Assembly: GCA_964439085.1 (NCBI GenBank)
Contig: CAYTNB010000002.1
Span: 1 to 61,523, forward strand
Length of the DNA: 61,523 bases
Direction: 5' to 3'
Source of the DNA: an uncultured Desulfobulbia bacterium
GTDB lineage: Bacteria > Desulfobacterota > Desulfobulbia > Desulfobulbales > VMSU01
Positions within the stretch are counted from its first letter, which is position 1. The number at the start of each line of letters is the position of its first letter. The notes beneath the pieces are model-generated. The model made no database searches, was not told the DNA's origin, and was given only the letters and a program-made list of their open reading frames with translations. This document shows, piece by piece, positions 2,843 to 61,311 of this stretch. The translations under genes and the position numbers were made by a program.

Positions 2843-3106
2843 GACGGTCTCGTAAAAAGTACCCAAAGGGGGCATAGCAATCCAATCTACTGCGTTGTAG
2901 CAATTTTTTAGGTGCGAGGCTATACATATGGCATGCCTCGTGCCTAAAAAATTGCTACGCCTCGGAGTCTCACTCCGTTCGCTTACCTGTATATCAAACT
3001 TTTCGCAGTCTACGCTCAGCTATTGCCCCGGTGGTTAAATATCCAAAAGATACAGCCTGTATGACAGCAAAAAAACAGCCTTCCTGAGACTTTTTACGAG
3101 TATATC
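2843..3106. mobile_element. Family A MITE copy A1 (holds one micro-module and a ~50 bp D-like insert)
   Basis: Ends gacggtctcgtaaaaagt / actttttacgagtatatc; flanks aacttt / aatttt. Confidence 0.85.
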
Positions 3107-3137
3107 AATTTTTAATTACCTGTTTTTATGATATTTT

Positions 3138-4340
3138 TCAAGCGGGATTCAGATATACCGTCACCTTTTCGCCACATTTAAGGCATCGGCGACGGGCCGG
3201 AATGACCAGCAGGGCGTCAGAGGGCTCCAGGTCATGGACGAGACGTACCGTGCGCCGGAATCCCCGATGCGAGAGTCTGGCCTCTTTAAGTCGCATAACG
3301 CCTGGTTTACGTATTTTAATATCCTCAGCAAGAATAGCCTGACCCTGATACGGTTTTGCGTGCCGCACCCCTTGTTGACGTAAGATGGCGGGAGTAATAA
3401 GCAGCGGAAACAGGGCGGCAATGGCGGGCGGCGGGCCAGGCAAGGCAAAATAGAGAAGGTTGGGCAGACGCCCCAGCAGGGTAGATTGGCCGGGCCTGAT
3501 CGCAAGGGTATTATAGATTATTTCACCACCTATCTCGGCAAAAGCTCTGGCCACCAAATCATATTTCCCCGGCCCCATACCACCAGTACTGACGATGATC
3601 TGCTGACCACCTTTTTTTGCAGCCCCTTCTTGACAATCCACAAGCAGCCTTTTTATGTCCTGCAAACTGTCCACCACCCGCCCCAGATTAATGGGTCTGC
3701 CTCCAGCCTGGTGAATCAGGCGGCTTAATAAATAGACGTTACTGCCAATTTTCTGGCCAGCCAGTGGCGTGCTGTTAATCTCCACAAGTTCACTGCCGGT
3801 ACAAAAAAACCACACCTCTGGCCGCTTGAATACACTAAGTTCTGCGAAACCATTGGCCACCAGAGCAGAAAGATGGCAGAGGGCGACACGTTCCCCGGTA
3901 TGGAGGATTACCTGCCCAATTTTCATCTCCGATCCCCGGCGGCGAATAAAGGACTTAGAGGGCAGGGGATATGGAATTTTTACCCGGCCAGCTACCTCCT
4001 GACATATTTCAAATGGTACAACTCGATCCGCCCCTTCTGGCACTGCGGCCCCGGTCATGATTCGTATTGCCTCTCCAGGCGTAATACGTGGTATTATCGT
4101 ATCACCAGCGGCCAATTCAGCAATAATATTAAAATTAAGCTCCCCGCCAAACTCAGTGCTGCCAGCTTGATTGGCAATGGCATATCCATCCATGCTGGCA
4201 TAATTAAAATGGGGTATGGGTCGGCAGCACTTGCTCGGTGCAGCACTGACCCTGCCCATGACCTGTTGCAAAGGGATGGTTTCGACAGCGCCGCTTCTCA
4301 CAAGGCGCAGTATTTCATTTTGAGCCGCATCAAGCTTCAT
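3138..4340 (-). CDS. moeA: Molybdopterin molybdotransferase MoeA family
   Basis: SMDGYA, RIMTGAAVPEGADRVVPFE, TGSEL, STGGMGPGKYDLV. Confidence 0.85.
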   Translation of the reverse strand: MKLDAAQNEILRLVRSGAVETIPLQQVMGRVSAAPSKCCRPIPHFNYASMDGYAIANQAGSTEFGGELNFNIIAELAAGDTIIPRITPGEAIRIMTGAAVPEGADRVVPFEICQEVAGRVKIPYPLPSKSFIRRRGSEMKIGQVILHTGERVALCHLSALVANGFAELSVFKRPEVWFFCTGSELVEINSTPLAGQKIGSNVYLLSRLIHQAGGRPINLGRVVDSLQDIKRLLVDCQEGAAKKGGQQIIVSTGGMGPGKYDLVARAFAEIGGEIIYNTLAIRPGQSTLLGRLPNLLYFALPGPPPAIAALFPLLITPAILRQQGVRHAKPYQGQAILAEDIKIRKPGVMRLKEARLSHRGFRRTVRLVHDLEPSDALLVIPARRRCLKCGEKVTVYLNPA

Positions 4341-4349
4341 GAATCGGTC

Positions 4350-4688
4350 TCAGCCTGGAGGCCAGCTCATTGAGCGGCCTCCCAAGACATGCAGATGAAA
4401 ATGGAAGACCGTTTGTCCGGCCTCCTCGCCGTTATTGACCACAAAGCGAAATTGCTCAATACCGTTTTCAGCCGCCAAATGCGCCCCAGTCCGTAACAAC
4501 TTGCCAATAAGAATGTCATCCACTTCTCCGGCATCGCCAGGACCTGCCAGATGTTTTTTAGGAATCACCAAAAAGTGCTTTGGGGCCTGAGGATTCAAAT
4601 CCCAAAAGGCCAACACCTCATCGTCTTCGTAGAGTTTATTGGCCGGAATATCTCCAGATGCAATTTTACAAAAAATGCAGTCGTTCAT
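4350..4688 (-). CDS. hinT: HIT family nucleotide-binding protein
   Basis: DCIFCKI N-terminus, GQTVFHFHLHVLGGR histidine triad, WPPG end. Confidence 0.93.
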   Translation of the reverse strand: MNDCIFCKIASGDIPANKLYEDDEVLAFWDLNPQAPKHFLVIPKKHLAGPGDAGEVDDILIGKLLRTGAHLAAENGIEQFRFVVNNGEEAGQTVFHFHLHVLGGRSMSWPPG

Positions 4689-4767
4689 AATTTCTCCTAG
4701 TATTTTTTTACTGCAGGAACAATTCAGAAAAAGCCAAAAACACTTCTAATTCATCATTCCCAAGCTT

Positions 4768-4930
4768 GATGGACTCGTAAAAAGCCCATCACACTCTAAG
4801 AGATGGCTAAGTAAAAAAATCGATATACAAGGCGTGGTGATTTCGCAAGGGTTTGACCCCATACATATGGTATGTCAAACGTTTGCGAAATCACCACAAC
4901 GCAGTAGATCGGACTTTTTACGACGCCATC
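4768..4930. mobile_element. Family A MITE copy A2 (no micro-module)
   Basis: gatggactcgtaaaaag ... ctttttacgacgccatc, perfect 6-bp flanking repeat aagctt. Confidence 0.9.
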
Positions 4931-5142
4931 AAGCTTAATAAAACGCAACTATTGGCAAAGCCTGCTTTTTCCAGGTCTTTTATTAACTGGCAAATTTTTC
5001 TAGGCATAACACCATAGTACTACTTTGGTACCACTCGATCAAATGGAGTAATGCAATATCAAAAAACGAATTTTTGGGGGGGGAATTAACTTATCCAAAA
5101 GTTACGAGATATTTTTCTAACTTATCGGTACAATAAGTTATC

Positions 5143-5257
5143 AGTACCTTACTGATTGTTTTCTCGGAGTCTACGCTTCGCTTACCTGTTTTTTAGAAAA
5201 GAATTTATAAGGTACCTAGGTAAGCGTAGACTCCCACACCCCCCTTGCGGGGTGTTA
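5143..5257 (+). repeat. Family B hairpin element copy B1
   Basis: agtaccttac..gattgttttct[module]gttttttagaaaagaatttataaggtac[module]...ggggtgttag; matches other copies. Confidence 0.9.
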
Positions 5258-5396
5258 GAAAATACACCAAGGCCGTTACGAAGAAAATATTTATTTTTAT
5301 GTATTAGAAAATCAAGATTTTCGGAGTTTCACTTACCTGTGTTTTTTGCAGTTAATTATTTTTTTCCGAGATCCTAAAAACAGTTAGGAGTGCAGC

Positions 5397-6647
5397 ATGT
5401 TCCAATTTATTCACGCCGCTGATATCCATTTAGATAGTCCATTACGGGGCCTGGAAACCCACGAAGACGCCCCGGTTCGAGAGATTCGGGCAGCTTGCCG
5501 CAGGGCCTTTGATAATCTTATCGAGATGGCCATTGACGAGGAAGTAAATTTTGTGCTTCTGGCGGGCGATGTTTATGACGGCGACTGGCGGGATTATAAT
5601 ACGGGCCTGTTCTTCGTCGACCGGATGGCAAGATTGATGCGGGCAGGTATTCAGGTTTTTATGATATCCGGAAATCACGATGCCGCCAGCCAAATCAGTA
5701 AATCCTTGCAGCTACCTGATAATGTAAAGGTTCTCTCAACCAAAACCCCAGAGACCATCCTGCTGAATGATCTCGGCGTGGCCATTCATGGCCAGGGTTA
5801 CAATTCCAGAGCGGTAAAGGAAAATTTGGCCGCCCAATATCCCTCTGCCCTACCGAATTATTACAATATCGGCCTTCTGCACACGGCACTGACCGGTCGG
5901 GCGGGGCATGAACCCTACGCCCCCTGCTCAGTGGATGACCTGTTGGCCAGGGGCTATGATTATTGGGCCTTGGGGCATGTGCATCAAAGTGAAATTATCC
6001 ACCAGGCCCCCTATGTCGTTTTCAGCGGCAATTTACAAGGCCGCCACATCCGGGAAACTGGCCCAAAAGGGGCGATCCTGGTAACGGTAGACGACGGTGT
6101 GATGAGCCTTGAGCAGCGGGAACTAGATGTAGTACGCTGGTCACTTTGCCCCCTGAACGTGGCCGAGTGCCGTGAAGTGGATGAGGTATATGAACTTATC
6201 CGAACAGCCTTTTCTGACATCAGTACAACTGGCCTGGCCGCCGACCATATCATGGCCGTGCGCCTGCAATTATTGGGTGAAACATCATTGCATACAGATC
6301 TGCGGGCCAATTTGGCGCATGTAATTGAAGAGTGCCGGGCCTTGGCCGTTGCGGCCGGAATTTGGCTGGAAAAGGTGAAATTTGCAACCAGCCGTCCGTC
6401 TACGTTAACGGTAGACCATGATTCACCCCTGGCACTATTGTTCCAAAAGATTGACAGCTTTGAAACCGATGGCGAACACTTACTGGAATTAGTGCCAGAG
6501 CTTGCCGCTTTGCGAAATCGCTTACCAACGGCACTCATCGATGCCCAAAAATTTTCACTGAACAATGAAAATAATGTCGCTGAATTATTGACCGATGTGA
6601 AAGAACTACTGTTATCACGGCTTCTCAATCCTGGAGTAAAGCAATGA
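5397..6647 (+). CDS. Mre11/SbcD-like metallophosphoesterase nuclease (YhaO-like)
   Basis: HAADIHLDSP, AGDVYD, GNHD, LLHT, YWALGHVH motifs; GGAG RBS. Confidence 0.9.
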   Translation: MFQFIHAADIHLDSPLRGLETHEDAPVREIRAACRRAFDNLIEMAIDEEVNFVLLAGDVYDGDWRDYNTGLFFVDRMARLMRAGIQVFMISGNHDAASQISKSLQLPDNVKVLSTKTPETILLNDLGVAIHGQGYNSRAVKENLAAQYPSALPNYYNIGLLHTALTGRAGHEPYAPCSVDDLLARGYDYWALGHVHQSEIIHQAPYVVFSGNLQGRHIRETGPKGAILVTVDDGVMSLEQRELDVVRWSLCPLNVAECREVDEVYELIRTAFSDISTTGLAADHIMAVRLQLLGETSLHTDLRANLAHVIEECRALAVAAGIWLEKVKFATSRPSTLTVDHDSPLALLFQKIDSFETDGEHLLELVPELAALRNRLPTALIDAQKFSLNNENNVAELLTDVKELLLSRLLNPGVKQ

Positions 6648-9600
6648 GAATCAGGTATCTTGACTTACAAGCCTTCGGCCCCTTTACGGACAAACACCTC
6701 GATCTGGATAAGGCATCCCTCCACATTATCTACGGCCCCAATGAAGCAGGTAAAAGTAGTGCCTTGCGGGGCTTAAAGGCCCTGCTCTACGGTTTTCCGG
6801 AACGTACTACCGATAATTTTATTCACACAAACGATAAACTCCTGGTAGGCGGCTGTCTACAATTGAGTGATGGCCAGGAGCTTAGCTTTATGCGCCGGAA
6901 GAAACGACTCGCCAATCTGCTTGATGCTGACGGCAATATCCTGGCGGCCAACGCCCTTGCCCCCTATCTGGGCGGCATAGCCCCGGACGTATTTGCGGCA
7001 TTATACGGTATTACCCATGCGGAATTGGTGCGGGGTGGAGAGGAGATTCTGGCCCAGAAGGGCGAAGTAGGCCAGGCCCTCTTTGCAGCAGGCTCCGGCC
7101 TGTCATCATTGAAAGAGGTGTTGGATAATCTCCAGGTGGAAGCCGATGAATTATTCAAGCCCAAAGGCAGTAAACCTAAAATCAACCAATTATTGGCAGA
7201 GTATAAAAAGCTCCGCAAAAAGGCTAGAGAGGCGGCACTGCCAAGTCGCCAATGGCACGACCATCAACGAGCCTTGACCACCGCCGAAGATAAATTAAAA
7301 GCCCTGGAAGAGGAGCGACGTGCCCTTGAAAAACAACGGCATGGACTCGAACGTCTGCATCGTGCCCTGCCACAATTGGGTAGACGCCAAGCTCTGCTGG
7401 CCGAGCTGGCAGGGCTTGGTGAGGTTATGATCTTACCTGCTGATTTTAGTGAACGGCGACAGACCGTTGAAAAGGAGATACATGCCGTTGTCCGCCAGCA
7501 GGAAATGGGACGTGGGCGGCTGCGGGAACTTGAAAAGAATGAAAAGACCGTTTCCTCGCCCTCTTTGATTTTGACTCAAGCCCTGGCAATAGAAGAGTTA
7601 TACCAGGGGCTGGATCGTTACCGTAAAGACCGCCGGGACAGGGATAAGCTGGACGGTTTACGAGTGGGTTATCGTATCGAAGCAGTTGATTTGTTACGGC
7701 AAATTCGTCAGGACATCTCTCTGCAGAATATAGAGCAATTACGACCATTTTTAAATCGCCGTCGAGCCATGCAGCGTTTGGCTGGGCAAGCCCCGGCTAT
7801 AGCTCAAGGTAAGAAGATGGCAGAACAACGTCTGGCCAATCTTAAAAAAGAGCTGGAGGCAAGTAAAACCGCTGCCGCCACAATGCCCGAGACGGAAGAC
7901 ATGGAGGCCCTGCGTTTGGCCTGTCGCCTGGCGCAGCGGGCAGGCAGTATTGATGAGGATTTGGCCGAAAGAACGCAAATCCTCACGACATTAAAGAAAA
8001 ACAGCCAAAGAGATTTAGATCGTCTGGGCCTATGGACTGGCAAAATTGCCGATATTGGCAAGGTACATTTGCCGCTGCCTGAGACCATTGAGCGTTTTGA
8101 TCGTAAATTCCAGGCTTTGGCTGAGCGAGAACGCCTGCATCGCCTGGCATCAGAGAAGGCGTCAGAGGACATCCGCACCAGAGAGACGGGGCGTAAGACC
8201 CTGCAAATGGGTGGTCAGGTTCCTACCGAAAAGGATTTGCAGAAAGTGCGCCTAAATCGCAACGAAGATTGGCAAAAACTGCGAGAATGTCTCCTGAAGC
8301 GGGAAAAGTCCACCTTTGACGAGCCTGTTATGAACGATATGACCATAATTTATGAGGATAAAGTTTTAACAGCGGATACCCTTGCCGATCGGCTACGGCG
8401 CGAGGCCGACAGGGTACATACATACGCGCTTTTGCAGAATGAAATTTTGAGTCTTCGGCAAAGCCTGGCTGATTTGGCGGCCCAGACCGATGACCTGACA
8501 ACAGATCGCCAAACATTGGAGAAGGAATGGCAGCGACAATGGCGCACATCCGGCATTTCTCCCCTGGGAACAAAGGAAATGCTGGCCTGGGCCACTGGAT
8601 TTGACAAACTCCGTTTTCAAATAGCAGAAATAGAGAACCGAAGCGACGAGCTACTGAGACGCAGCGCACTAAGAAGACGGCTGATATCCGATCTTTTGGC
8701 AGAGTTAGAGAGATACAACTACACCGGAGCACGAGAGGAGTTACAGGCTCCGTTACTCTTCGCTGAGGGTATTCTGGCCGAACACGATAAGCTGGCCGGA
8801 GAGAGACATCGATTAAAGATAAAAATCATTGAACTTACAACTGAAGTTGAGCAAGCTGTCGGAAATAACCACACAGCATCCCAGGAGTTGGAAAAGTGGC
8901 AACAGGAATGGCAGGGCATGGCAGGCGACTGGCAAAACGGGACTCCCCCGCAGCCCGCAGATGTTAATGATATACTGGAAACGCTGCGCGATTGTTTTGA
9001 TAAGATAAAGGAGGCCGATACCCTTGAGAAGCGCATAAAGGGTATTGATCGTGATCTGGAAACTTTCTCACAGGCAGTTACCAAATTAGCAACCACGGCT
9101 GAAGCACATCTACCTTGTGAGCAGGTGGTGCGGGGCCTCATGGCTGCTCTATCCGAGGCACGGGAGAATAAGGCTTTACTGGACAAATGCACGAAAGAGC
9201 TGGCGGCGGCGCAAAAGGAGATGAATCAGCTTGATATCCGTTTGCACAGCCTTTACGAGCTGCGGGCGGAGCTTCTTAAAATTGCGGACTGCCAGCCTGA
9301 CGAGGTCTTGGCGGCAGAGCGCCGGTCGACGGATCTTTTGCAGATTAAAGACAAACTTGAATCAGTACAGACAAGTCTGATTGAACTTGCCCAGGGGCGA
9401 ACTATTGCAGCACTTGAGGAGGAGGCCAAGGCCGTTAACCCTGATGATTTACCCGGCATGATAAGTGCCGCCAGCCGCAGGATTGGGCAGGAGATAGAGC
9501 CAGAAATTAAGCGGCTATCCGAGGCTGTCTGGGAAGGTAAGAAAACCCTCTCTCTCATGGATGGTAGGTCGAAGGCGGCAGAGCTTGGGGAGATAATTCA

Positions 9601-10129: not shown

Positions 10130-10397
10130 TGGACTCGTAAAAAATCCCCAATCCCGTCATCCCCGCACAGGCGGGGACCCATAACATATTGAAACTACTG
10201 GATTCCCGCTTCTGCGGGAATGACGAAGAATAAGAGAATTATAGTTTTTACGAGATCATCAACCTTAAAGTGTCGCAAGATTACGAAGTGATTTGGCACG
10301 ACTGGCGGCACATAGCAGCGCTATGTAACGGAAGTCGTAACGCCATTGGTGCGTCAAATGATAAGTAAGATGCGACACTTTAAGGTTGATGAGGCAC
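10112..10397. mobile_element. Family C MITE copy C1, interrupted by A3
   Basis: Ends gtgcctcgtaaacctt..aaagtgtcgca / tgcgacactttaaggttgatgaggcac; TA on both flanks; body matches 21394-21552. Confidence 0.88.
10128..10260. mobile_element. Family A MITE copy A3 with a dRS3/REP-like double hairpin cargo
   Basis: TSD aacctt at 10122-10127 and 10261-10266; interior cgtcatccccgcacaggcgggg...ggattcccgcttctgcgggaatgacg. Confidence 0.9.
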
Positions 10398-10446
10398 TAA
10401 GTACAAATCAACCGAGCCAGGATTCGTAATAAGGCTAAACTTTTTT

Positions 10447-10474
10447 ATTGCACAATACTCGTTTATTGTGCAAT
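10447..10474. promoter_or_regulatory. Operator-like palindrome upstream of the MshEN gene
   Basis: attgcacaata-N6-tattgtgcaat, perfect 11-bp inverted repeat. Confidence 0.45.
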
Positions 10475-10581
10475 GATATAGAGATACGATAGTTTTTATA
10501 TCGAAGATGAAATGTAACTATTCAGCTAGGGGCTAAAATGGCCCGTAACTCCGTATCATCACTGTTTATGGGAGGAGAGTC

Positions 10582-11385: not shown

Positions 11386-11388
11386 GCT

Positions 11389-12888: not shown

Positions 12889-12890
12889 CG

Positions 12891-15699: not shown

Positions 15700-15822
15700 C
15701 TAACACCCCACGAGGGGGTATCGGAGTCTACGCTTACCTACGTGCACCTTATAAATTATTTTCTAAAAAACAGGTAAGCGGAGCGAAGCGTAGACTCCGA
15801 GAAAACAATCTGTAAGGTGCTA
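15700..15822 (-). repeat. Family B copy B2
   Basis: Near reverse complement of B3. Confidence 0.9.
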
Positions 15823-17519: not shown

Positions 17520-17639
17520 TAGTACCTTATAGATTGTTTTCTCGGAGTCTACGCTTCGCTCCGCTTACCTGTTTTTTAGAAAAGAATTTATAAAGTACTA
17601 GGTAAGCGTAGACTCCGATACCCCCTCGTGGGGTGTTGG
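17520..17639 (+). repeat. Family B copy B3
   Basis: Full-length match to B1/B9, directly after the porin stop. Confidence 0.9.
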
Positions 17640-21300: not shown

Positions 21301-21671
21301 GATGCACTCGTAAAAAGTCTCGGGATGGCTAAGTAGATAAGCATAGACTGCGAAAAATTTGATATACAGGTAAGCGAAAAGAGTGAGACTCTAGTGCCTC
21401 ATAAACCTTAAAGTGTCGCAAGATTACGAAGTGATTTGGCGTGCCAACAAGGCACGACTGGCGGCGCATAGCAGCGCTATGTAACAGAAGTCGTAACGCC
21501 GTTGGTGCGTCAAATGACAAGCAAGATGCGATACTTTAAGGTTTAGAGGCACTAGGGCGTAGTAATTTTTTAGGTGCGAGGCCGTACTTACGGAGGTCGT
21601 GTCTAAAAAATTGCCACAACGCAGTAGATCGGATTGCCATGCCCCTTCTGGGTACTTTTTACGACACCATC
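21301..21671. mobile_element. Family A MITE copy A4, containing C2
   Basis: gatgcactcgtaaaaagt ... actttttacgacaccatc; flanks not duplicated. Confidence 0.85.
21394..21552. mobile_element. Family C MITE copy C2 (intact)
   Basis: ~26-bp TIRs gtgcctcataaaccttaaagtgtcgca / tgcgatactttaaggtttagaggcac; ctag reads across both junctions. Confidence 0.9.
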
Positions 21672-25742: not shown

Positions 25743-25829
25743 TGGTGCCGGAGCTCGGGGTCGAACCGAGACGGAGTTGCCCCCGCGGGATTTTGAGTCC
25801 CGTGCGTCTACCAATTTCACCACTCCGGC
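25743..25829 (-). tRNA. tRNA-Leu(CAA)
   Basis: GCCGGAGTGGTGAAATTGGTAGAC...GGGACTCAAAATCCC...GGTTCGACCC...CTCCGGCACCA; long variable arm, encoded CCA. Confidence 0.97.
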
Positions 25830-25905
25830 GTTAAACAAAACCGATCAACGACTAATCATGAAAAAAAACATAAAACATCCATTAACAGACGAGAATGTGA
25901 AAAGG

Positions 25906-28005: not shown

Positions 28006-28069
28006 GTTGCTTTTTTAATGATATGAAATAACGGTATTTTAAATTAACTATTCAAACACCGAAGCAATA
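28006..28069. repeat. Family D copy D2
   Basis: Near-identical to 25505-25569; abuts truncated A5. Confidence 0.8.
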
Positions 28070-28188
28070 CAAGGCGTAGCGATTTTTTAGGTGCGAGGCC
28101 AAGCATATGGAGGTCGTGCCTAAAAAATTGCTACAACGCAGTAGATCGGATTGCTATGCCCCTTTTGGGTACTTTTCGCGAGACCATC
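28067..28188. mobile_element. Family A copy A5, left end missing, no micro-module
   Basis: atacaaggcgtagc...acttttcgcgagaccatc. Confidence 0.8.
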
Positions 28189-35039: not shown

Positions 35040-35115
35040 CTAACACACCACGAGGGGGTATAAATACCTTATAAATTATTTTCTAAAAAACACGAAAACA
35101 ATCTGTAAGGTACTA
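35040..35115 (-). repeat. Family B short form B4 lacking both micro-modules
   Basis: ctaacacaccacgagggggtataaataccttataaattattttctaaaaaacacgaaaacaatctgtaaggtacta. Confidence 0.88.
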
Positions 35116-36380: not shown

Positions 36381-36613
36381 GGTGGATCGTAAAAAGTACC
36401 CAAAAGGGGTATAGCAATCAGATCGACTGCGTTGTAGCAATTTTTTAGGCACGACCTCCACATGTATGGCCTCACGCACGAAAAATCACTACGCCTCGGA
36501 GTCTCACTTCGTTTGCTTACCTGGAGTCTCACTCCGTCTGCGTACCTGTATATCAAACTTTTCGCAGTCTACGCTTAGCGACCTAGCCATCCCGAGATTT
36601 TTACGAGCACATC
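36381..36613. mobile_element. Family A copy A6 with tandem micro-modules
   Basis: ggtggatcgtaaaaagtacc ... tttttacgagcacatc. Confidence 0.88.
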
Positions 36614-40900: not shown

Positions 40901-41059
40901 GCCACAGACACAAAAACGTGTGCTCTAGTAATTTAGTCAAGTACAGGAGCCTGCCTATAGGCAATCTTTGTTTGAATGCACACTGTTCACTGTGAACAGC
41001 GGCCCAAAAAACAAAAGTCTGTGTGGATCCGGAGTCTCACAGGCTCGCTTACCTGTGGC
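40901..41059. repeat. Family H element (gccacaga...tgtggc) with a micro-module in the right arm
   Basis: gccacagacaca ... tctgtgtggatc[module]tgtggc. Confidence 0.6.
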
Positions 41060-42040: not shown

Positions 42041-42152
42041 CCAACACCCCACGGGGAGGGGTATCGGAGTCTGAGCTTACCTAGTACCTTATAAATTCTT
42101 TTCTAAAAAACAGGTAAGCGCAGACTCCGAGAAAACAATCTGTAAGGTACTA
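42041..42152 (-). repeat. Family B copy B6
   Basis: Full-length match. Confidence 0.9.
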
Positions 42153-42890: not shown

Positions 42891-43002
42891 CTAACACCCC
42901 ACAAGGGGGTATCGGAGTCTTAGCTTACCTACTGTACCTTATAAATTCTTTTCTAAAAAACAGGTAGGCGCAGACTCCGAGAAAACAATCTGTAAGGTAC
43001 TA
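42891..43002 (-). repeat. Family B copy B7
   Basis: Full-length match. Confidence 0.9.
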
Positions 43003-50009: not shown

Positions 50010-50059
50010 TTATAAGGGAGGCGGTTTAGTCCAGCCAGTTTTCCCCATATTTTTTTCTT

Positions 50060-50106: not shown

Positions 50107-50177
50107 TGGAGGTACCTTCTTAATGGGTGCCCAAAATACGATAAGTGTGACGATTTACAAATAAAAAGGCCAGCAAA

Positions 50178-52269: not shown

Positions 52270-52504
52270 CTCATAAATCCTAACACCTTCGTCTATAGGG
52301 GAAAGCACATATGGCTACGCTTGCGTCGGGTCATAACCCAATTGCTAACGTTATACTCCAGCATCGAATCAGTATTTTTATGCTGAATCTTGCAAAAAAA
52401 GTTTGCAAAAATTTTTTTTTTTTGTATTCATTAGCGTTTGGCTCAATCATCTTGGCAAGTGCTGAGTGCGTGATTGGGCCTGAATTATTTATGGTATCAG
52501 CAAA

Positions 52505-53419: not shown

Positions 53420-53424
53420 TTTTG

Positions 53425-53611
53425 TAACCAGAAGTAAGCGAGCCTGCGAGACTCCGGAAGCACACAGAAAAAATGGCATAAGGTTATTACTTTTGTAGTT
53501 TCTGGTGACTTTGGCACTATTCCAATATAAAAAACCACCATAGTTTGCCGCCACAAAAAAAAGAAAGCAATAGTTGCTTTTTCAGTGTGGTTCTGGGTGG
53601 TTCTGTGACTA
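53425..53611. repeat. Degenerate family H-like element with a micro-module
   Basis: taacca..[module]gaagcacacaga ... gtgtggttct..ggttctgtgac. Confidence 0.5.
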
Positions 53612-53637
53612 ATACAATTTAAATAAAGAGAAAACCT

Positions 53638-54846
53638 ATGAACTCAAAGATAAAGAAAATTGTGCTGGCCTATTCCGGCGGCCTGGATACCTCCGTAATT
53701 TTAAAATGGCTCTCAGAGGAGTATCAATGTCCCGTGGTGGCTTTTGCGGCTGACGTCGGGCAGACTGAGGACTGGCAGGCGGTACGGGACAAAGGGATGG
53801 CAACTGGCGCAGAGAAGGTGGTAATTTCCGATCTGCGGGAGGAATTTGTACGTGATTATGTCTTTCCTGCCTTTCGAGCCAATGCCATCTACGAAGGCTC
53901 ATATTTATTGGGAACCTCTTTGGCGCGCCCGGTTATTGCCAAGGAACAGGTACGAGTTGCCGCTGAAAACGGCGCCGATGCCGTGAGTCACGGCGCTACT
54001 GGTAAGGGTAACGATCAGGTGCGCTTTGAAATGACCTACTTGGCCTTAAACCCGCAGCTTAAGATAATTGCCCCGTGGCGTATCTGGGATCTTAATTCTC
54101 GCACTAAATTAATGGATTATGCCAAAAGAAATGGTATTCCGGTACCGGTTACCAAGAAAAACCCCTATAGCTCCGATGAAAATCTGCTCCATATCAGTTT
54201 TGAAGGCGGTATTCTGGAAGACCCTTGGAATGAGCCTGATGAGGCCATGTTTAAGCTCAGCAAATCTCCTGAATCTGCTCCAGACAAGGCTACCTATATC
54301 GAATTGGAATTTAAGCAGGGTAATCCGGTGGCCATTGACGGCGAATCTTTAACAGCCGCCGCCATGCTGACCCGTCTCAATCAATTGGGCGGCGAAAACG
54401 CCATCGGGCGGCTGGATATGGTAGAGAATCGTTTTGTGGGCATGAAGTCAAGAGGGGTCTATGAGACTCCGGGCGGCACAATTTTGCGGATCGCCCACCG
54501 GGACTTAGAAACGATAACCCTGGATCGGGAGGTAATGAAGATTCGTGACAGTCTAACTCCCAAATATAGCGAAATGGTCTATAACGGTTTCTGGTTTGCC
54601 CCGGAAATGGAGCTTATGCAAAAAACCATGGACACGGCCCAGGCAACAGTCAACGGTGTTGTTCGCCTGAAACTATATAAGGGTAATTGCATTCCAATAG
54701 GTCGTAAATCGGATAATTCTCTTTATCAGGAGAGCTTTGCTACCTTTGAGGAAGACGATGTCTATACCCAGTCAGATGCGGCAGGTTTTATTCGTTTAAA
54801 TGCCTTGCGCCTCACGATTCAGGCTTTAAATAAAAAAGGTAATTAA
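53638..54846 (+). CDS. argG: Argininosuccinate synthase
   Basis: [33 protein letters not shown]. Confidence 0.98.
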
Positions 54847-54848
54847 TA

Positions 54849-56249
54849 ATGAGTAAATCCACAGACGGGGCGACCAAGCTTTGGGGCGGACGTTTTCAGG
54901 AACGAACTGCTGCTTCGGTGGAGGCCTTTACCGCCTCTATTCAATATGATTCAAGACTTTACCGGTATGATATTGCTGGAAGTCAAGCCCACGCCAGGAT
55001 GTTAGCCCGTCAGGGACTGATAACCGAGGTGGAATGTGAGTCTATTGTTAAGGGACTTAATGAGATTGAGCGTGAGATTGAGCGTGGTGATTTTGTCTTC
55101 AAATCTGAGCTGGAAGATATTCATATGAATATCGAAAAGGCCCTGGCAGATAAAATTGGCTCTGCCGGGGAGCGCCTGCATACCGCCCGCAGCCGCAACG
55201 ATCAGGTTGCCCTGGATATTCGGCTTTACCTGCGAGCCGAAACGCACCATTTTCAAAATCTGTTGGTGGAATTGCAACGTAGCCTGGTTCGTCTGGCCCG
55301 TAAATATCAGCATACCGTGATGCCGGGCTATACCCATATGCAACGAGCCCAACCAGTATTGGCTGCCCACCATCTTCTGGCCTATTACGAGATGTTTGGA
55401 CGCGATCGACAGCGCTTGGCCGATGGCCTGGTGCGGATCAATGTCATGCCCCTTGGCTCTGCCGCTTTGGCTGGCACCGGCCTCCCCATTGATCGACATT
55501 ATGTGGCAGAACTGCTTGGTTTTCCGACGGTATCTGCTAACAGTATGGACTCAGTGGCGGATCGTGATTTTGTGATTGAATTTCTAGCCACAGCAGCCAT
55601 GATTCAAGTGCACCTGAGCCGCCTGTCTGAAGAGCTGGTGCTGTGGGCAAGTGAGGAATTTTCCTTTATTAGCCTGGCCGATAGTTTTTGTACTGGTAGC
55701 AGCATAATGCCCCAAAAAAAGAATCCGGATATTCCAGAATTGATCCGTGGAAAGACTGGCCGGGTTACCGGCAATTTAATGGCCCTGCTCACCCTAATGA
55801 AGGGGCTGCCCATGACCTATAACCGGGATTTGCAGGAGGACAAGGAACCTCTATTTGATACCATTGATACTGTAGGGCCAAGCATTGGTATTATGACTGA
55901 ACTCCTGGCCCACCTCGAATTCAACCGGGAACGTTTGGCACAGGCCACTACTGGCGGTTATATGACGGCTACTGATTTGGCTGATTATCTGGTGCGACAA
56001 AATATTCCCTTCCGGCAGGCGCATGCCATTGTGGGCCGAACTGTAGCTTACGGACTTGAGCAAGGGAAAGAGTTACACGAAATGAGCCTTGATGATTTGC
56101 GGCAGTTTTCTGACCAAATTGCCGATGATGTCTTTACCGTACTATCTGCCGCCGGCTCGGTGAATAGTCGGGTATCGATAGGCGGCACCTCCGGGCAAAG
56201 CGTGGCTATCGCTCTGGCAAAAGCCGAAAAAGAGTTGGAGTTGCAGTGA
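54849..56249 (+). CDS. argH: Argininosuccinate lyase
   Basis: LWGGRF, RSRNDQ, GSSIMPQKKNPD. Confidence 0.98.
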   Translation: MSKSTDGATKLWGGRFQERTAASVEAFTASIQYDSRLYRYDIAGSQAHARMLARQGLITEVECESIVKGLNEIEREIERGDFVFKSELEDIHMNIEKALADKIGSAGERLHTARSRNDQVALDIRLYLRAETHHFQNLLVELQRSLVRLARKYQHTVMPGYTHMQRAQPVLAAHHLLAYYEMFGRDRQRLADGLVRINVMPLGSAALAGTGLPIDRHYVAELLGFPTVSANSMDSVADRDFVIEFLATAAMIQVHLSRLSEELVLWASEEFSFISLADSFCTGSSIMPQKKNPDIPELIRGKTGRVTGNLMALLTLMKGLPMTYNRDLQEDKEPLFDTIDTVGPSIGIMTELLAHLEFNRERLAQATTGGYMTATDLADYLVRQNIPFRQAHAIVGRTVAYGLEQGKELHEMSLDDLRQFSDQIADDVFTVLSAAGSVNSRVSIGGTSGQSVAIALAKAEKELELQ

Positions 56250-56273
56250 AGCAAGTGCGCATTACATTGAGAC

Positions 56274-56473
56274 CTAACGCCCCACGAGGGGATACCGGAG
56301 TCTACGCTTACCAAGTGCCTCGTAAACCTTAATTAAAAAAATGAACATCGAACATCGAATTGCGGAAGTCGCTGCACCCCATCTGTTTAATGCCAAAAAC
56401 ACCTTATTCGACGTTCAATATCAGAGGATTTCGCTTACCTCAATGTTGAATATCGAAGGCTTTCGCTTACCTG
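56274..56473. repeat. Composite repeat remnant: B fragment, C left end, aacatcgaa-type repeats, two partial modules
   Basis: ctaacgccccacgagggg..cggagtctacgcttacc, gtgcctcgtaaaccttaa, aacatcgaacatcgaa, ttcgcttacct twice. Confidence 0.7.
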
Positions 56474-57540
56474 AACTTTGCTCTTTTAAACCCAGTCGTA
56501 ATCTACTGACCATTTCTCTCCTCTGCCTATTCTTTTCGATGCTGTGTGGCTGTGGCCGTAAAACTCTACCCATCCCCCCCCAAGATGCGGTTCCTGCCCC
56601 CATTACCGATCTAAGCGCTCATCAAGACGGTAATAAAATTGTCCTGAACTGGACGATTCCCAAGCGTACCACTGTAGGCTCCAGGCTACCGCAGATCAAG
56701 GCCTTTCAATTATTGAGAGCAGTAGTGACAGAGGATGCCTGTCTAACTTGCCCTGTATCTTTTACCAGCACGATTGAATTACCCCTAGATCAGGTCACAC
56801 AAAACTTTAAGGCCAAGATAGGCCAATATTCCGAAACCCTTTTGCGGCCGGAACATCGATACATCTATAAAATAAGAACCAGGGCAGGTTGGCGTTTAAT
56901 CAGCGACGATTCTAACCAGGTTGCCTTTCTCTGGCTCTCCCCCCCGGAGGCCCCCAGGGAACTTCAGGTCACGGCGGGAGATCAACAAATTAGTTTAAAA
57001 TGGCAGGCAGCAACCAGGATGGTCAATGGCAATCCGCTGACTGGCGACCTGCGTTACCGGGTATACCGCGGCCTGAATAACAAAGATCTACAAGCCATTA
57101 GTGAGCCTGTCGCTACCCCCTCTTATGAGGATATCGGACTTTTAAATGGCCGCCATTATTATTATAAGGTCACCGCCGAATTACAACGTGATAATGCCCG
57201 GATTGAAGGACTGGCAAGCCCCATTGCCTCTGCCACCCCACACGACTTAACGGCTCCGCCTCCACCTCGAAATCTTGTTGTGGTCAAAATGGCAACAGGT
57301 ATCAAAATATTATGGGAACGGACAACCAGCTCCGATTTAGCGGGATACCGGGTCTATCGGCGTCTGGCCGATGGTAAATTGACCAAAATAGGCGAGGCGG
57401 ATGCCAGCGGCAATGCCTTTGTCGATCAAAAACCGCCCACTGGCCCTACCTCATGGTATTACGCCGTTACATCCTTTGACCGGGCCCAGCCTGCCAACGA
57501 AAGCACATACTCTCAGGAGATTATATATGAATCATTTTGA
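56443..57540 (+). CDS. Lipoprotein with fibronectin type III repeats and LptM/LppL-like N-terminal motif
   Basis: Lipobox LCGC then GRKTLPIPP; Fn3-like units (LNW, LKW..YRVYR..YYYKV, LW..GYRVYR..YYAV); start uncertain (56341 or 56443). Confidence 0.8.
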   Translation: MLNIEGFRLPELCSFKPSRNLLTISLLCLFFSMLCGCGRKTLPIPPQDAVPAPITDLSAHQDGNKIVLNWTIPKRTTVGSRLPQIKAFQLLRAVVTEDACLTCPVSFTSTIELPLDQVTQNFKAKIGQYSETLLRPEHRYIYKIRTRAGWRLISDDSNQVAFLWLSPPEAPRELQVTAGDQQISLKWQAATRMVNGNPLTGDLRYRVYRGLNNKDLQAISEPVATPSYEDIGLLNGRHYYYKVTAELQRDNARIEGLASPIASATPHDLTAPPPPRNLVVVKMATGIKILWERTTSSDLAGYRVYRRLADGKLTKIGEADASGNAFVDQKPPTGPTSWYYAVTSFDRAQPANESTYSQEIIYESF

Positions 57541-58780
57541 TTATCGGAAAGGTTTGCTACACGCCGAGGACGTGCCGGTAACAGCTATCGCTGAAGCCAT
57601 TGGCACCCCTTTTTATCTCTATAGCTCTGCCACCCTGACCAAACATTTTAAGGCCGTTGACCAGGCCTTTGCAAATATTTCTCACATTACCTGTTTCGCC
57701 GTAAAATCATGCTCCAACCTCTCCATTTTGGGAATGTTTGGGAGCATGGGCGGCGGCGCAGATATAGTGTCAGGCGGCGAATTGTTCCGGGCAGTCAAGG
57801 CCAGGATTGATCCCAAAAAAATTGTCTATTCCGGCGTAGGTAAAACAACAGAGGAGTTGCACTACGCCCTCACTACCGGCATCTTGATGTTTAATGTAGA
57901 ATCGTTACAGGAATTGGAAAAATTGCAGGAAGTAGCAGCCAAACTTGACCTGCAGGCACCCATCGCCCTGCGGATTAATCCGGATGTCGATCCCAAGACA
58001 CATGCCTATATTTCTACCGGTCTGGCCAAGAATAAATTTGGCATTCCCATCGAGCAGGCAGCGGAGATTTATCAGGCGGCGCAGAAAATGACCTATATTG
58101 AGGTTATTGGCGTGAGCTGCCATATCGGCTCCCAATTAACCACGGTAGCACCTTTTATAGAGTCCATGCACAAAGTGATTGCCTTCATCAAAGAATTGGC
58201 AAAATCTGGCATTCAGATTAAATATCTCGATATGGGCGGCGGCCTGGGAATTAAATATGATCAGGAAGAACCACCACAACCAGACGAGTATGCTGCCGCT
58301 CTTAAGGAACTAACGGCAGAGCTAAATGACTGCATCTTGATAATCGAACCAGGACGAGTTATAGTTGGAAACGCCGGTATTCTGGTGACCAAGGTTATTT
58401 ATACCAAATCCGGCCAGAAAAAATTTATCATTGTCGATGCCGGAATGAATGATCTGGCTCGGCCAAGTTTGTATGATTCCTATCACGAGATATTGCCCGT
58501 ACTTGAAACACAGAACGGCCTCCAGGAGGCAGATATTGTCGGGCCAATTTGTGAGACGGGAGATTTTCTGGCCAAGGGCCGCATGGCACCAATCTGTGAG
58601 CAAGGTGACCTACTGGCAGTTATGAGTGCGGGGGCCTACGGTTTTTCCATGTCATCCAATTATAATTCCCGGCCCAGGGTGGCCGAGGTCATGGTTAATG
58701 GTTCGGAATTTCAGGTTATCAGAAAAAGAGAGACCTTTGCGGATTTGATCAGAGGCGAGGCGGGGCCAGAGGACAAATAA
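57527..58780 (+). CDS. lysA: Diaminopimelate decarboxylase
   Basis: FAVKS, HIGSQ, EPGR, VGPICETGD, SNYNSRP; start ATG 57527. Confidence 0.97.
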   Translation: MNHFDYRKGLLHAEDVPVTAIAEAIGTPFYLYSSATLTKHFKAVDQAFANISHITCFAVKSCSNLSILGMFGSMGGGADIVSGGELFRAVKARIDPKKIVYSGVGKTTEELHYALTTGILMFNVESLQELEKLQEVAAKLDLQAPIALRINPDVDPKTHAYISTGLAKNKFGIPIEQAAEIYQAAQKMTYIEVIGVSCHIGSQLTTVAPFIESMHKVIAFIKELAKSGIQIKYLDMGGGLGIKYDQEEPPQPDEYAAALKELTAELNDCILIIEPGRVIVGNAGILVTKVIYTKSGQKKFIIVDAGMNDLARPSLYDSYHEILPVLETQNGLQEADIVGPICETGDFLAKGRMAPICEQGDLLAVMSAGAYGFSMSSNYNSRPRVAEVMVNGSEFQVIRKRETFADLIRGEAGPEDK

Positions 58781-58819
58781 AGGTCTGTAAGGAAATAACC
58801 GGGCTAATATTACGCCTAG

Positions 58820-58994
58820 GAGGCTGTCCGAGAATAGAAGCCGTGCGAAAAATTAGAGAATTGAGACCAGTTTATCGATCATTTCCAGGCAATAACAGCG
58901 CTATTAGACGAAAATTAGCAAAAAACTGGGCCAATTTCTCCGGCTTCGATGTCTGCGCTTATCTGCAGCAAGCTCCCTATTCTCGGACAGCCTC
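58820..58994. mobile_element. Family G MITE
   Basis: Perfect TIR gaggctgtccgagaatag / ctattctcggacagcctc; flanks ctag / ccag. Confidence 0.88.
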
Positions 58995-59081
58995 CCAGAT
59001 TCAAACCTGGCCCGAAGATAAGATGTAAGATTGGCCAGGTTTTTTTTACAGGATCTAAGTATAGTGTAGCGGAGACTTCAG

Positions 59082-59936
59082 ATGGCAGAGAACAAAAAAC
59101 AACTTTGGCCATTACCCATACCATTTACCAAGATGAGTGGGGCGGGGAATGACTTTATTATTTGTGATCACCGCAAGCCCTTTTTGGCTGAGAATGAGAT
59201 GGCGGAATTGGCCAGACTGATCTGCCGCCGCAAGTTTTCTGTTGGGGCCGATGGTCTTATATTGATCGAGAATGATCCACAGGTGGATTTTCTCTGGCAC
59301 TTCTATAATGCCGATGGTAGTTTGGCGGAAATGTGCGGGAATGGGGCACGTTGTGCGGCCCGTTTTGCCTATGATTTAGGTATTGCCCCGGCATCAATGC
59401 GTTTTAAGACGGTGGCTGGGGTGATTGAGGCTGAAATTATCGAAGCGGCAGTGAAGCTTAAAATGACAACGCCTGTTGACTTACGGCTTGATCAGCAAAT
59501 TACCATAAACTCTAAAGAAATCTCGGGCCACCACATAAATACTGGTGTGCCCCATGTGGTTATCTTTGTTGATGACATCACCAAAGTACCAATAATCGAG
59601 CAGGGACGTGCGGTTCGTAATCACGCCGTTTATCAGCCTGCCGGAGCCAATGTAAATTTTGTGGAGATGCGAGGGGCTCAAGAGCTGTACGTTCGAACCT
59701 ATGAACGCGGCGTAGAAGGAGAAACCATGGCTTGCGGCACCGGAGCTGTGGCAGCTGCTCTTATTGCCGCCCGGATCAGACGCGCTGTGTCACCGGTGCG
59801 TATAATTACCTCGGGCGGCGACTCTCTGTATATTCATTTTCGCCTGGACACAGATAAGGATGTCCACGAAGTGTATCTTGAGGGCCCAGCCCATACTATT
59901 TATAGCGGACAACTGCGAGAAGACTCCTTAAAATGA
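59082..59936 (+). CDS. dapF: Diaminopimelate epimerase
   Basis: GAGNDF, EMCGNGARC, GVPH, ERG..ETMACGTG. Confidence 0.97.
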   Translation: MAENKKQLWPLPIPFTKMSGAGNDFIICDHRKPFLAENEMAELARLICRRKFSVGADGLILIENDPQVDFLWHFYNADGSLAEMCGNGARCAARFAYDLGIAPASMRFKTVAGVIEAEIIEAAVKLKMTTPVDLRLDQQITINSKEISGHHINTGVPHVVIFVDDITKVPIIEQGRAVRNHAVYQPAGANVNFVEMRGAQELYVRTYERGVEGETMACGTGAVAAALIAARIRRAVSPVRIITSGGDSLYIHFRLDTDKDVHEVYLEGPAHTIYSGQLREDSLK

Positions 59937-59944
59937 GTAACTTT

Positions 59945-60170
59945 GATGCACTCGTAAAAAGTCTCGGAATGGCTAAGTAGCTAAGCGTAGACTGCGAAAA
60001 GTTTGATATACAGGTAAGCGAACGGAGTGAGACTCCAGGTAAGCAAACGAAGTGAGACTCCGAGGCGTAGTGATTTTTTAGGTGCAAGGCCATACATATG
60101 GTATACCTCTTGTTACAACGCAGTAGATCGGATTGCTATACCCCTTTTGGGTACTTATTACGAGACCATC
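59945..60170. mobile_element. Family A copy A7 with tandem micro-modules
   Basis: Perfect TSD aacttt at 59939-59944 and 60171-60176. Confidence 0.92.
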
Positions 60171-60307
60171 AACTTTGGTTAACAATTTTATCGAATGGAG
60201 CGTTTTAAATCGTGTAGGGTGTTTTGTGTTTACACATTTTAATAATGTTTCTCTGAACAGAATAATAAACAGATTTAGTAACGATAAACCAAATGAGGAA
60301 GAAAAAA

Positions 60308-61192
60308 ATGACTGAATTTAAAGGAGCATATGTAGCCATCGTGACACCATTTGCAGATGGCAAGCTGGATGAGCAGGGGTTATGTGACCTTGTAGATTTT
60401 CAGGTGACAAATGGTACTAATGGCATCGTGCCTTGCGGCACTACCGGTGAATCCGCTACCCTTAGTCATGAGGAACACCATAAGGTGGTGGAATTAACCA
60501 TCAAAACGGTAAATGGGCGTACTCCGGTTCTGGCCGGCACCGGCTCCAACAGTACTAGCGAGACCATTGAGCTCACGAAACATGCCAAAGCGGCGGGCGC
60601 CGACGGTTCGCTAATAATTACACCCTATTATAACCGTCCTTCTCAGAATGGTTTATATCAGCATTTTAAGGCGGCTGCTGAGGCGGTGGATATTCCCATT
60701 ATTATGTACAATGTTCCATCGCGCACAGGAATAAACATGTTGCCGGAGACGGTGTCTCGCTGCGCCCAGATTGAAAATATTGTCGGAATCAAGGAGGCAA
60801 CAGCCGATCTGAACCAGATAAGCGAGATTATCCGCCTCTGCCCAGATGATTTTTCTGTTCTGTCTGGTGATGATTTTACCTCAATGGCCACCGTTGCTAT
60901 TGGCGGCAAGGGACTGATTTCAGTAACCTCAAATGTAGCGCCCAAGGATGTGGCGGATATGATCAATCTGGCCCTGGCTGGTGATTTTACCAAGGCTAAG
61001 GATTTGCATTATAAACTGTTCCCCTTGATGCAGGCCATGTTTTATGAGTGCAACCCGGTGCCGGCCAAGGCCACCCTGGAATTGATGGGTAAGATTAAAT
61101 CGGGATCGCCAAGATTACCATTGGCTCCCATAAGTGCCGTGAATTTTGAGAGATTGAAGAAGGCTATTTCCGAATATGGGTTATTGGCCTAG
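60308..61192 (+). CDS. dapA: 4-hydroxy-tetrahydrodipicolinate synthase
   Basis: GTTGES, PYYN, YNVPSRT, GIKEA. Confidence 0.97.
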   Translation: MTEFKGAYVAIVTPFADGKLDEQGLCDLVDFQVTNGTNGIVPCGTTGESATLSHEEHHKVVELTIKTVNGRTPVLAGTGSNSTSETIELTKHAKAAGADGSLIITPYYNRPSQNGLYQHFKAAAEAVDIPIIMYNVPSRTGINMLPETVSRCAQIENIVGIKEATADLNQISEIIRLCPDDFSVLSGDDFTSMATVAIGGKGLISVTSNVAPKDVADMINLALAGDFTKAKDLHYKLFPLMQAMFYECNPVPAKATLELMGKIKSGSPRLPLAPISAVNFERLKKAISEYGLLA

Positions 61193-61201
61193 AAACTATT
61201 T

Positions 61202-61311
61202 TAGTAACTTACAGATTGTTTTTTCGGAGTCTGCGCTTACCTGTTTTTTAGAAAATAATTTATAAGGTACTAGGTAAGCGTAGACTCCGATACCCCCTCT
61301 TGGGGTGTTAG
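61202..61311 (+). repeat. Family B copy B9
   Basis: Full-length match. Confidence 0.9.

Follow-up and report, generated by a model that had tools for sequence, protein, structure and literature searches.

The window, i.e. the whole stretch of 61,523 nucleotides analyzed here, which comes from a sulfur-cycle bacterium, contains 27 copies, variants included, of a short module without genes, hereafter M, with the pattern G-N-TAAGCG...AGAC-W-N'-CG and a length of 17 to 27 nt; the strict form of the pattern gives 16 matches. An earlier note on this DNA, made from the sequence alone, had counted about 20 copies. Every copy it placed was found again upon re-examination of the window, but five copies belonging to two covarying variants had been overlooked. 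It had also described empty sites, and these are indeed seen in family A (4821-4834, 28066-28078) and in family B (about 35040-35115). Five full family-B copies are present, each with two M modules. The copies and empty sites are the following:

2963..2987, reverse strand: M, 25-nt form, site A2 of the MITE-like family A
3004..3020, reverse strand: M, 17-nt C2/G15 variant (GCT...TGCG type), site A1 of family A; missed earlier
4769..4934, forward strand: family A copy lacking M at either site (empty A site at 4821-4834)
5165..5186, reverse strand: M, 22-nt form, site B1
5219..5235, forward strand: M, 17 nt, ending in C, site B2; an additional A stands to its left
5322..5337, reverse strand: M, 16 nt, decayed, within another host repeat
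15722..15738, reverse strand: M, 17 nt, site B2
15773..15799, forward strand: M, 27-nt form, site B1
17543..17569, reverse strand: M, 27-nt form, site B1
17601..17617, forward strand: M, 17-nt type copy, site B2
21336..21352, forward strand: M, decayed mixed 17-nt variant, site A1; missed earlier
21369..21393, forward strand: M, 25-nt form with a decayed end, site A2
28066..28078, forward strand: A2 site, empty, of an incomplete family A copy
35040..35115 (approximate), forward strand: family B copy lacking M at either site
36497..36546, reverse strand: two 25-nt M in tandem, site A2; the first unit ends in A
36563..36579, reverse strand: M, 17-nt C2/G15 variant (GCT...TGCG type), site A1; missed earlier
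41030..41053, reverse strand: M, 24-nt form, host H
42065..42081, reverse strand: M, 17 nt, site B2
42113..42129, forward strand: M, 17 nt, site B1
42913..42929, reverse strand: M, 17 nt, site B2
42963..42979, forward strand: M, 17 nt, one base substituted, site B1
53433..53456, forward strand: M, 24-nt form, host H; starts with A, not G
56296..56312, reverse strand: M, 17 nt, partial B2-type context
58947..58963, reverse strand: M, 17-nt A2/T15 variant (GAT...ATCG type), host family C; missed earlier
59980..59996, forward strand: M, 17-nt C2/G15 variant (GCT...TGCG type), site A1; missed earlier
60013..60062, forward strand: two 25-nt M in tandem, site A2
61225..61241, reverse strand: M, 17 nt, site B1
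61273..61289, forward strand: M, 17 nt, site B2

The genome scan proposed in the earlier note returned 346 matches to the strict pattern, whereas two simulations under an order-4 Markov model gave 10 and 15. Amplified host repeats carry most copies along; among approximately 470 copies in the genome of the window (G000), 139 lie in B1, 102 in B2, 58 in A2, 36 in A1 and 31 in C. M was found in 158 of 201 genomes, with 0 to 356 copies per genome and, within single genera, a range from near 0 to more than 200. Its range is a single order, likely the Desulfobulbales. In GTDB, where 2 of 64 parts were scanned, 115 of 120 matches are labeled Desulfobacterota or delta or plain Proteobacteria, and none is cyanobacterial. 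Cultured carriers include Desulfogranum marinum DSM 2058, Desulfobulbus rhabdoformis DSM 8777, Hydrosulfovibrio ferrireducens CB1MN and strain B35. As regards metagenomes, 29 of 142 matches had non-canonical middles and were excluded as probable chance matches, and one locus was excluded from every count.

We distinguished 194 contexts of M, and 16 contexts in G000 have unique flanks. The hosts comprise MITE-like repeats, heptamer repeats, DNA that we take to be group II intron-like (L132, L269, L345) and M itself. These contexts, together with pairs of filled and empty sites, bear out the proposal that a tiny element inserted many times independently into unrelated repeats; a common ancestor of families A, B and H, considered in the earlier note, is not supported, the hosts being unrelated. 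The enrichment in repeats that it had suggested examining is apparent (47 of 61 contexts compared with 174 of 400 control sites). Comparison of filled and empty sites indicates that insertion is base-exact and occurs without target duplication. When near-exact empty sites were considered (at most two mismatches in 26 nt), 13 out of 15 joined at gap 0, three of these 13 opposing single and tandem M, and CA^G sites, where a duplication is impossible, provided 16 and 14 empty copies. The duplication-free insertion claimed previously holds at most sites, but some filled B2 copies carry one extra A: filled B2 junctions read TTA in 7 cases and TA in 26, and empty ones TT in 12, CT in 3 and TA in 3. 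The target is a loose CA^A-type site, B-A^R, with A at base -1 in 138 of 155 G-variant contexts, C at base -2 in 133 and A at base +1 in 143 of the 194 contexts, and no conservation at positions -4 and -3; it is slightly unpaired at the cut (0.36 vs 0.42 overall). An alternative register, with M starting with A and a C^G target, was rejected because empty sites mostly retain A at -1.

Both backbones of family A exist empty and filled at A2, one with a 25-mer and the other with a 17-mer, and one repeat of the genome G061 is either empty or filled, a single site carrying differing M variants. In the closed genome G377, an A2/T15 variant is nested in the reverse strand of a 24-mer M, at whose left junction a different 25-mer is present at L441 and L449 and absent at L427 and L451. 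Tandem arrays count 2 to 5 units, mostly of identical rare variants (L223-L227, L249, L387), and mixed-variant tandems also occur (G377). Single extra bases separate tandem units at L227 and L229, and a G-to-A change is seen at some tandem junctions. Between related populations, polymorphism was found at the level of the host, the entire family-A copy being missing at the locus 60013..60062. In congeners and related-population contigs we saw no unique orthologous site that was polymorphic for M only; the orthologous sites of congeners were too diverged for comparison (about 65-80% identity in genes).

Compensatory base changes support a one-strand hairpin with a DNA-type fold, predicted to be capped by a GNA triloop or by tandem G.A pairs. 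In covariation counts that take in related copies, an A-T or C-G pair stands at positions 2 and 15 in 146 of the 150 cases listed out of 243 non-G2, non-C15 matches, and G.T shows no clear excess over A.C (8 vs 5 of 445). Among 27 distinct forms of the 25-mers, likewise counted with related copies, the first inner pair is Watson-Crick in 21 (8.1 when shuffled), the second in 24 (16.4 when shuffled), and the loop is GNA in 16. The middle base of the 17-mer loop is free (T 127, C 97, A 59, G 9). The conserved AA lies outside the covarying pairs, and its partner differs from the AA-GC bulge of REP. ViennaRNA gave no stable fold for the 17-, 22- and 24-mers and paired the 25- and 27-mers in a register other than the proposed one; as the program lacks sheared G.A pairs, the fold rests on covariation. 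Passages of PMC13037366 give a rule for DNA mini-hairpins that allows any middle base in GNA, the RNA analogs being much less stable. The predicted fold of M shares with the GCGNAGC mini-hairpin described there a GNA triloop that a C-G pair closes and whose middle base is free, but in M a bulged A breaks up the second G-C pair.

No enzyme could be linked to M. The families compared, Y1, RT, GIY-YIG, IVP and IS110, do not track it. Between M-rich and M-poor genomes, 20 of each, the numbers of genomes with a match are 13 vs 12 for RT, 11 vs 7 for extra GIY-YIG, 12 vs 9 for IVP and 8 vs 5 for IS110, the two groups having been picked by M count among mostly fragmented MAGs whose kin are not independent. 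Y1 occurs in 182 of 201 genomes, M-free ones included; none turned up in G412 (one contig, 21 M), G354 (13 M) and G384 (34 M), absences that are soft because at least two weak Y1 genes of G000 (C38, C247) escaped the family search. Strict M lies within 1.5 kb of Y1 at none of 30 loci in five M-rich genomes, and no M array flanks 15 further Y1 loci. No mobility enzyme was seen among 87 proteins neighboring M at metagenome loci (out of 113 candidate ORFs, short or M-overlapping ones having been dropped), and by eye none of the 41 ORFs with M on both sides in G000, out of 2397, resembles one. Two earlier ideas fared accordingly: no RAYT adjoins M, so that a catalogued REP beside its RAYT is not what was found, and the footprint of a larger excised element finds no support, there being no long parent copy in G000 and the IS110 ends, mapped at 12 of 20 fetched loci, being unlike those of M, which also speaks against an IS110/IS1111 derivative. 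Orphan halves of M in G000 (29 5' and 31 3') look like chance or truncation.

We propose, with a probability of about 45%, that M moves as a folded single strand, cut and joined by a trans-acting HUH-type (tyrosine) enzyme; HUH insertion of single strands was among the ideas of the earlier note. Against this stand the want of a linked enzyme, of a GTAG foot, of a C|T cut on the folded strand, of a strand bias and of support from ViennaRNA folding, as well as the junction exceptions. The folded strand, reading GGTAAG...CTCCG, would adopt a small irregular hairpin with pairs G1-C16 and N2-N15, an unpaired AA, G6-C13, a bulged A and C7-G11, capped by a sheared G.A that would either close a GNA triloop or begin a tandem-G.A extension. 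The enzyme would read the hairpin shape rather than the variable tip, cut the hairpin foot on both sides and join M into the A^R step of exposed single-stranded DNA. As the left junction CA^G can itself serve as a target, this would build M arrays. Most genome copies would then spread passively within amplifying host repeats, and selection likely clears insertions from genes. According to passages of PMC8266576, group-2 TnpA-REP joins single-stranded hairpins with an AA bulge in a TSD-free manner. If a new single-strand recombinase acts here, it would add a mechanism of scar-free insertion. Since M occurs in cultured strains, the enzyme could be sought with a synthetic 17-mer, as bait or as substrate. 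M is likely among the smallest mobile DNAs. A bolder proposal, which we regard as doubtful, is that M is a 17-base self-propagating DNA shape, smaller than any mobile element seen so far, and that an undescribed single-strand recombinase reads this mini-hairpin whatever its tip; if true, a cross-phylum class of micro-elements, including the small dispersed repeats (SDRs), would have in M its most tractable member, as well as a minimal scar-free insertion tag with possible cargo in the loop.

It is unlikely that M moves via RNA instead, as a short structured transcript copied by template-jumping reverse transcription, by a group II intron or another RT, and then placed into nicks. Elhai et al. 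are said to have proposed an RNA route for SDRs, and the arrays of mostly identical rare variants, the stray single bases at junctions, the copies inside group II intron-like DNA and the 48 RT matches of the closed, M-rich G377 would suit it; the RT counts in M-rich and M-poor genomes, the GNA triloop with its free middle base, a DNA-type motif, the lack of a clear G.T excess and the zero Rfam matches in the window at gathering score argue against it. More doubtful still is an origin in host replication or repair, in which a primase or polymerase would read the GNA mini-hairpin and make a short single strand that is sealed into nicks or loops of other hairpin repeats. This would dispense with a dedicated mobility gene, in agreement with none tracking M, with the repeat-enriched and slightly unpaired targets and with the GNA mini-hairpins among primase and phage polymerase signals (passages of PMC13037366). 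However, repair would rarely be expected to give base-exact ends on both sides and the same target step throughout about 190 contexts, and the copy-number range within genera suggests a factor gained and lost.

A very improbable reading is that an IS110/IS1111 or other site-specific recombinase moves M as a minimal donor. IS110 elements leave no duplication and here enter the same host repeats as M. The two M-rich genomes with the best assemblies (G328, G377) hold several copies each, while six near-closed M-poor genomes have none or marginal matches. Nevertheless, they were found in only 8 of 20 M-rich compared with 5 of 20 M-poor genomes, their mapped ends are unlike M, RNA-guided reading of a duplex leaves the covarying pairs within M unexplained, and DNA stiffness makes a 17-bp double-stranded circle implausible. 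We give least credence to M being immobile by itself, with a few old insertions spread by host repeats and inter-repeat recombination and with deletions as empty sites. The concentration of G000 copies in B1, B2, A2, A1 and C, the coming and going of a whole family-A copy and the want of an M-only polymorphism would fit, but not the number of distinct contexts, the unique flanks in G000 alone, the opposite-orientation nesting and the mixed-variant tandems; exact loss without flanking repeats would need an enzyme too.

Movement of a folded single strand by an HUH-type enzyme, the reading we prefer, has partial parallels. Like the group-2 REP/TnpA-REP (RAYT) system of Escherichia coli, as described in passages of PMC8266576, M would be a strand-specific extragenic single-strand hairpin with a predicted unpaired AA in the stem, and HUH chemistry would leave no duplication; it differs in having no GTAG foot 5' of the hairpin, no cut between C and T on the folded strand (the junctions are A^G, G^A and A^R), no adjoining REPtron, no paired inverted (BIME/REPIN) layout and half the size. 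On the opposite strand of M, one junction reads C^T. Non-autonomous IS200/IS605 derivatives (TnpA Y1 peel-and-paste) insert 3' of a short motif without duplication, restore the empty site exactly and involve hairpin recognition, with insertion favoring the lagging template (PMC6006769). M, in contrast, has a single hairpin in place of two ends and prefers a target of 3 bases; neither G000 nor the Y1 flanks searched yielded an autonomous parent, and there is no leading/lagging strand bias (188 vs 199 in G000; p 0.74 in G377). Host re-mobilization could erase any such bias. A MITE was rejected, M having no duplication and only 2-3 terminal pairs.

The closest known kind is the cyanobacterial SDR of Nostocaceae, compared here by description and with a mover likewise unexplained. 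SDRs reportedly measure 21-27 nt and show compensatory structure, nesting, and heptamer-repeat and mini-transposon hosts. M is also very small (17-27 nt, below about 30), gene-less, dispersed and precisely inserted in other repeats, with filled and empty sites (the extra A at B2 being an exception), and it matches these traits by nesting in itself (G377) and in heptamer and MITE-like hosts and by its covariation. It differs in belonging to another phylum and not being confined to Nostocaceae, in a 17-nt core below the reported SDR sizes, in fixed ends, exchangeable tips and a loose B-A^R target, and in a DNA-type GNA/tandem-GA fold, the route said to be proposed for SDRs being RNA. SDRs were reported by Elhai et al. 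2008 (Genome Res 18:1484), as cited in passages of PMC5861425, PMC4390886 and PMC3116915, according to which SDR5 inserts between bases 3 and 4 of HIP1. The earlier note had not recognized M as a described element; our literature search indeed found no published description of the family, but its kind is known. The movement of elements of about 20 bases has been an open question since 2008, to which M brings a smaller case whose ends are sharp, whose target follows a rule, whose fold covaries and whose tips can be exchanged. M also explains the modular build-up of intergenic repeats in this order.

M, a module of 17–27 nt with the form G-N-TAAGCG...AGAC-W-N'-CG, has fixed ends and a variable tip. 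A pattern scan with GGTAAG-(0-20)-GACTCC[GA] gave 16 matches in the window, or 27 M in total once decayed and variant copies were counted, and these bear out the positions at which the earlier note had placed the module. All of them lie outside annotated-length genes, except one in a gene start region. A similar pattern gave 346 matches in the whole of G000, the genome carrying the window (2.78 Mb, 275 contigs), whereas two order-4 Markov simulations gave 10 and 15; the match lengths peak at 17 (195 copies), 27 (55), 25 (47), 24 (18) and 22 nt (11). Start-anchored ORFs of at least 150 aa, which make up 80% of G000, contain 2 of 495 relaxed modules, and the looser stop-to-stop frames of 100 aa (89% of the genome) cover 12 of 61 independent contexts. 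M contexts are enriched in repeats: a repeated flank, which may itself include another M, was found in 47 of the 61, versus 174 of 400 random intergenic sites with the loose target step B-A^R (^ marking the insertion cut). Outside the five main host sites of G000, M between co-oriented genes is antisense in 36 cases and sense in 15, as raw counts with host clustering included.

Insertion of M is precise and repeated. When 161 deduplicated flank pairs were searched against G000 for empty sites, allowing at most 5 mismatches over 26 nt, 93 had a joined match, with gap 0 as the best in 48. At 2 mismatches or fewer, the gap was 0 in 13 of 15 pairs, three of these 13 being single versus tandem; the two other gaps were -1 at B2, a site of host family B, and +1 at one A2 site of the MITE-like family A. 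CA^G sites, where a duplication could not hide, have 16 and 14 empty copies at two hosts. Among 194 distinct contexts from G000 and all fetched loci, the commonest steps are CA^A (92), CA^G (20), TA^A (19) and GA^A (18); of 155 G-variant contexts, 138 have A at -1, a base that part of the fetching of A and C variants already required. Family A has two backbones, each seen both empty and filled at A2, one with a 25-mer and the other with a 17-mer. A repeat of genome G061 has one site that loci L230, L232 and L241 show filled and L231 shows empty; two other sites carry differing M variants among copies. The closed genome G377 has a 24-mer whose reverse strand carries an inserted A2/T15 17-mer; ahead of that 24-mer, two copies have a different 25-mer and two lack it. 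A further host there bears one, two or three 25-mers. Tandem arrays of two to five units are recurrent. The bulk of the copy number is passive: five host sites hold 366 of the ~470 copies in G000, and one family A copy of the window is missing entirely from related populations. From all the sequence evidence we conclude that M is real and appears to be mobile (probability near 0.9).

Some junctions depart from this scheme. Filled copies of B2 have TTA before M in 7 cases and TA in 26, and empty copies have TT (12), CT (3) or TA (3). Single extra bases stand between tandem units in loci L227 and L229, and the first unit ends with A instead of G at some tandem junctions (family A, contig C180 of G000, locus L225). 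Two routes would fit these exceptions: a mutation creating a CA^A step that is then targeted, and non-templated addition.

The variation within M is structured. Position 2 covaries with the third-last base (G-C, A-T, C-G): 243 order-wide matches have position 2 other than G and position 15 other than C, and 146 of the 150 listed have A-T or C-G, covariation counts being inflated by related copies. Every length form keeps C-G-...-A-G around the tip. The loop of the 17-mer is GNA with a free middle base, and the 23-, 24- and 25-mers are lengthened by GA/GA and then by one or two pairs. Among 27 distinct 25-mers, 21 have a Watson-Crick first pair (C-G 9, A-T 7, G-C 5; shuffled mean 8.1, with 0 of 5000 shuffles reaching 21), 24 a Watson-Crick second pair (shuffled mean 16.4) and 16 a GNA loop. 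Of the 24-mers, 12 of 14 keep the first pair (p 0.04), and the second is unsupported (7 of 14, p 0.8). PMC13037366 describes GCGNAGC as a DNA hairpin of unusual stability that has a sheared G.A whatever the base N, and cites an RNA analogue of far lower stability. The hairpin would form on the GGT...CCG strand and act as single-stranded DNA, and M is probably recognized in this form. ViennaRNA speaks against such a hairpin: it returned no fold for 17-, 22- and 24-mers and folded the 25- and 27-mers in another register.

An exact 17-mer scan of GTDB, covering 2 of its 64 parts, yielded at least 120 loci, and the estimated total is ~4100 stretches. Cultured M-rich strains include B35 and D. marinum DSM 2058. 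Among the 120 matches listed, 115 bear Desulfobacterota, delta or plain Proteobacteria labels, and because they are mostly from Desulfobulbaceae, Desulfocapsaceae and Desulfurivibrionaceae, G000 likely belongs to Desulfobulbales. Within the order, the variable-length pattern occurs in 158 of 201 genomes (0 to 356 copies each; at most 10 matches in reversed-pattern controls). Beyond it, 242 genomes of the same phylum gave 0–5 matches, approximately the control level. Nineteen viral loci match the pattern, most within heptamer-like repeats.

On the tests applied, the Rfam one covering the window, M belongs with neither REPs nor MITEs nor an Rfam family, and the REP survey PMC3733652, as far as its main text goes, makes no mention of Desulfo-, delta or GGTAAG. 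No description of the family was found in the freely accessible literature. M comes closest to the SDR elements reported from Nostocaceae (Elhai 2008) and shares their reported behavioural features; it differs in its phylum and its smaller core, the comparison being one of behaviour and not of sequence. M would belong to a known but unexplained kind.

We tentatively propose, at somewhat less than even odds, that M would be moved by HUH single-strand cut-and-join, because its exact ends, the lack of duplication and the short target at the cut match this mechanism, as do a hairpin that is irregular and strand-specific and a left junction that can itself serve as a target. Such a reaction is known for TnpA-REP (PMC8266576) and IS200/IS605 TnpA (PMC6006769), in the available text of both. 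No enzyme could be linked to M among the Y1, RT, GIY-YIG, IVP, IS110 and neighbouring genes examined. The earlier note had suggested looking for long copies with M ends and for RAYT/TnpA, IS110 or RT genes nearby; G000 holds no long copy, none of the Y1 loci examined is flanked by M, and the 87 neighbouring proteins are housekeeping or unassigned, plus one IVP protein. M orientation has no replichore bias. Y1 was detected in 182 of 201 genomes, and three of those lacking it have 13–34 M copies, the Pfam genome search having missed two more Y1-like genes in G000 (contigs C38:15679-16314 and C247). Y1 subclass 2.1, listed for delta-proteobacteria without associated REPs in the published text available, looks present in M-rich genomes and is a candidate mover. 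In loci L073, L108 and L422, M lies inside short inverted repeats of the kind bordering subclass-2.1-like genes.

Other routes were weighed against HUH cut-and-join. RT, GIY-YIG, IVP and IS110 were each tried as the mover and none separates 20 M-rich from 20 M-poor genomes; passage through RNA and a reverse transcriptase is unlikely, and movement by an IS110-type recombinase very improbable, IS110 ends being unlike M. Copying by host primase or repair is distinctly unlikely. That M does nothing but hitch-hike on host repeats is hardly probable at all.

Family A, MITE-like and with inverted ends, is a mobile element in its own right; its copy at window 59940-60180 is wholly absent from the corresponding locus of related populations, and one of these also has an A copy empty at both sites. 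In genome G328 (loci L461, L462 and L464-L468), IS110/IS1111-type elements insert at other positions of a MITE-like repeat hosting M. Loci L132, L269 and L345 carry M at two different sites, one with different variants, of what we take to be a group II intron 5' region. Most of the 48 reverse-transcriptase matches in the 3.6-Mb G377 are multicopy, and they are likely group II introns. Further features of the window are as follows.

10153-10224: palindromic repeat of another family within a family-A-type shell; it bears M in other genomes (loci L030, L249, L292).
10263-10390 and 21406-21545: further repeat of 93+ nt, copies 94% identical; the second interrupts a family A copy beside a decayed M.
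25746-25830, minus strand: tRNA-like sequence, with no Rfam report at gathering score.
56341-56480: heptamer-like repeats and two M-like 5' halves (minus strand) where ORF 56341-57540 begins, although translation of this ORF probably starts farther downstream.
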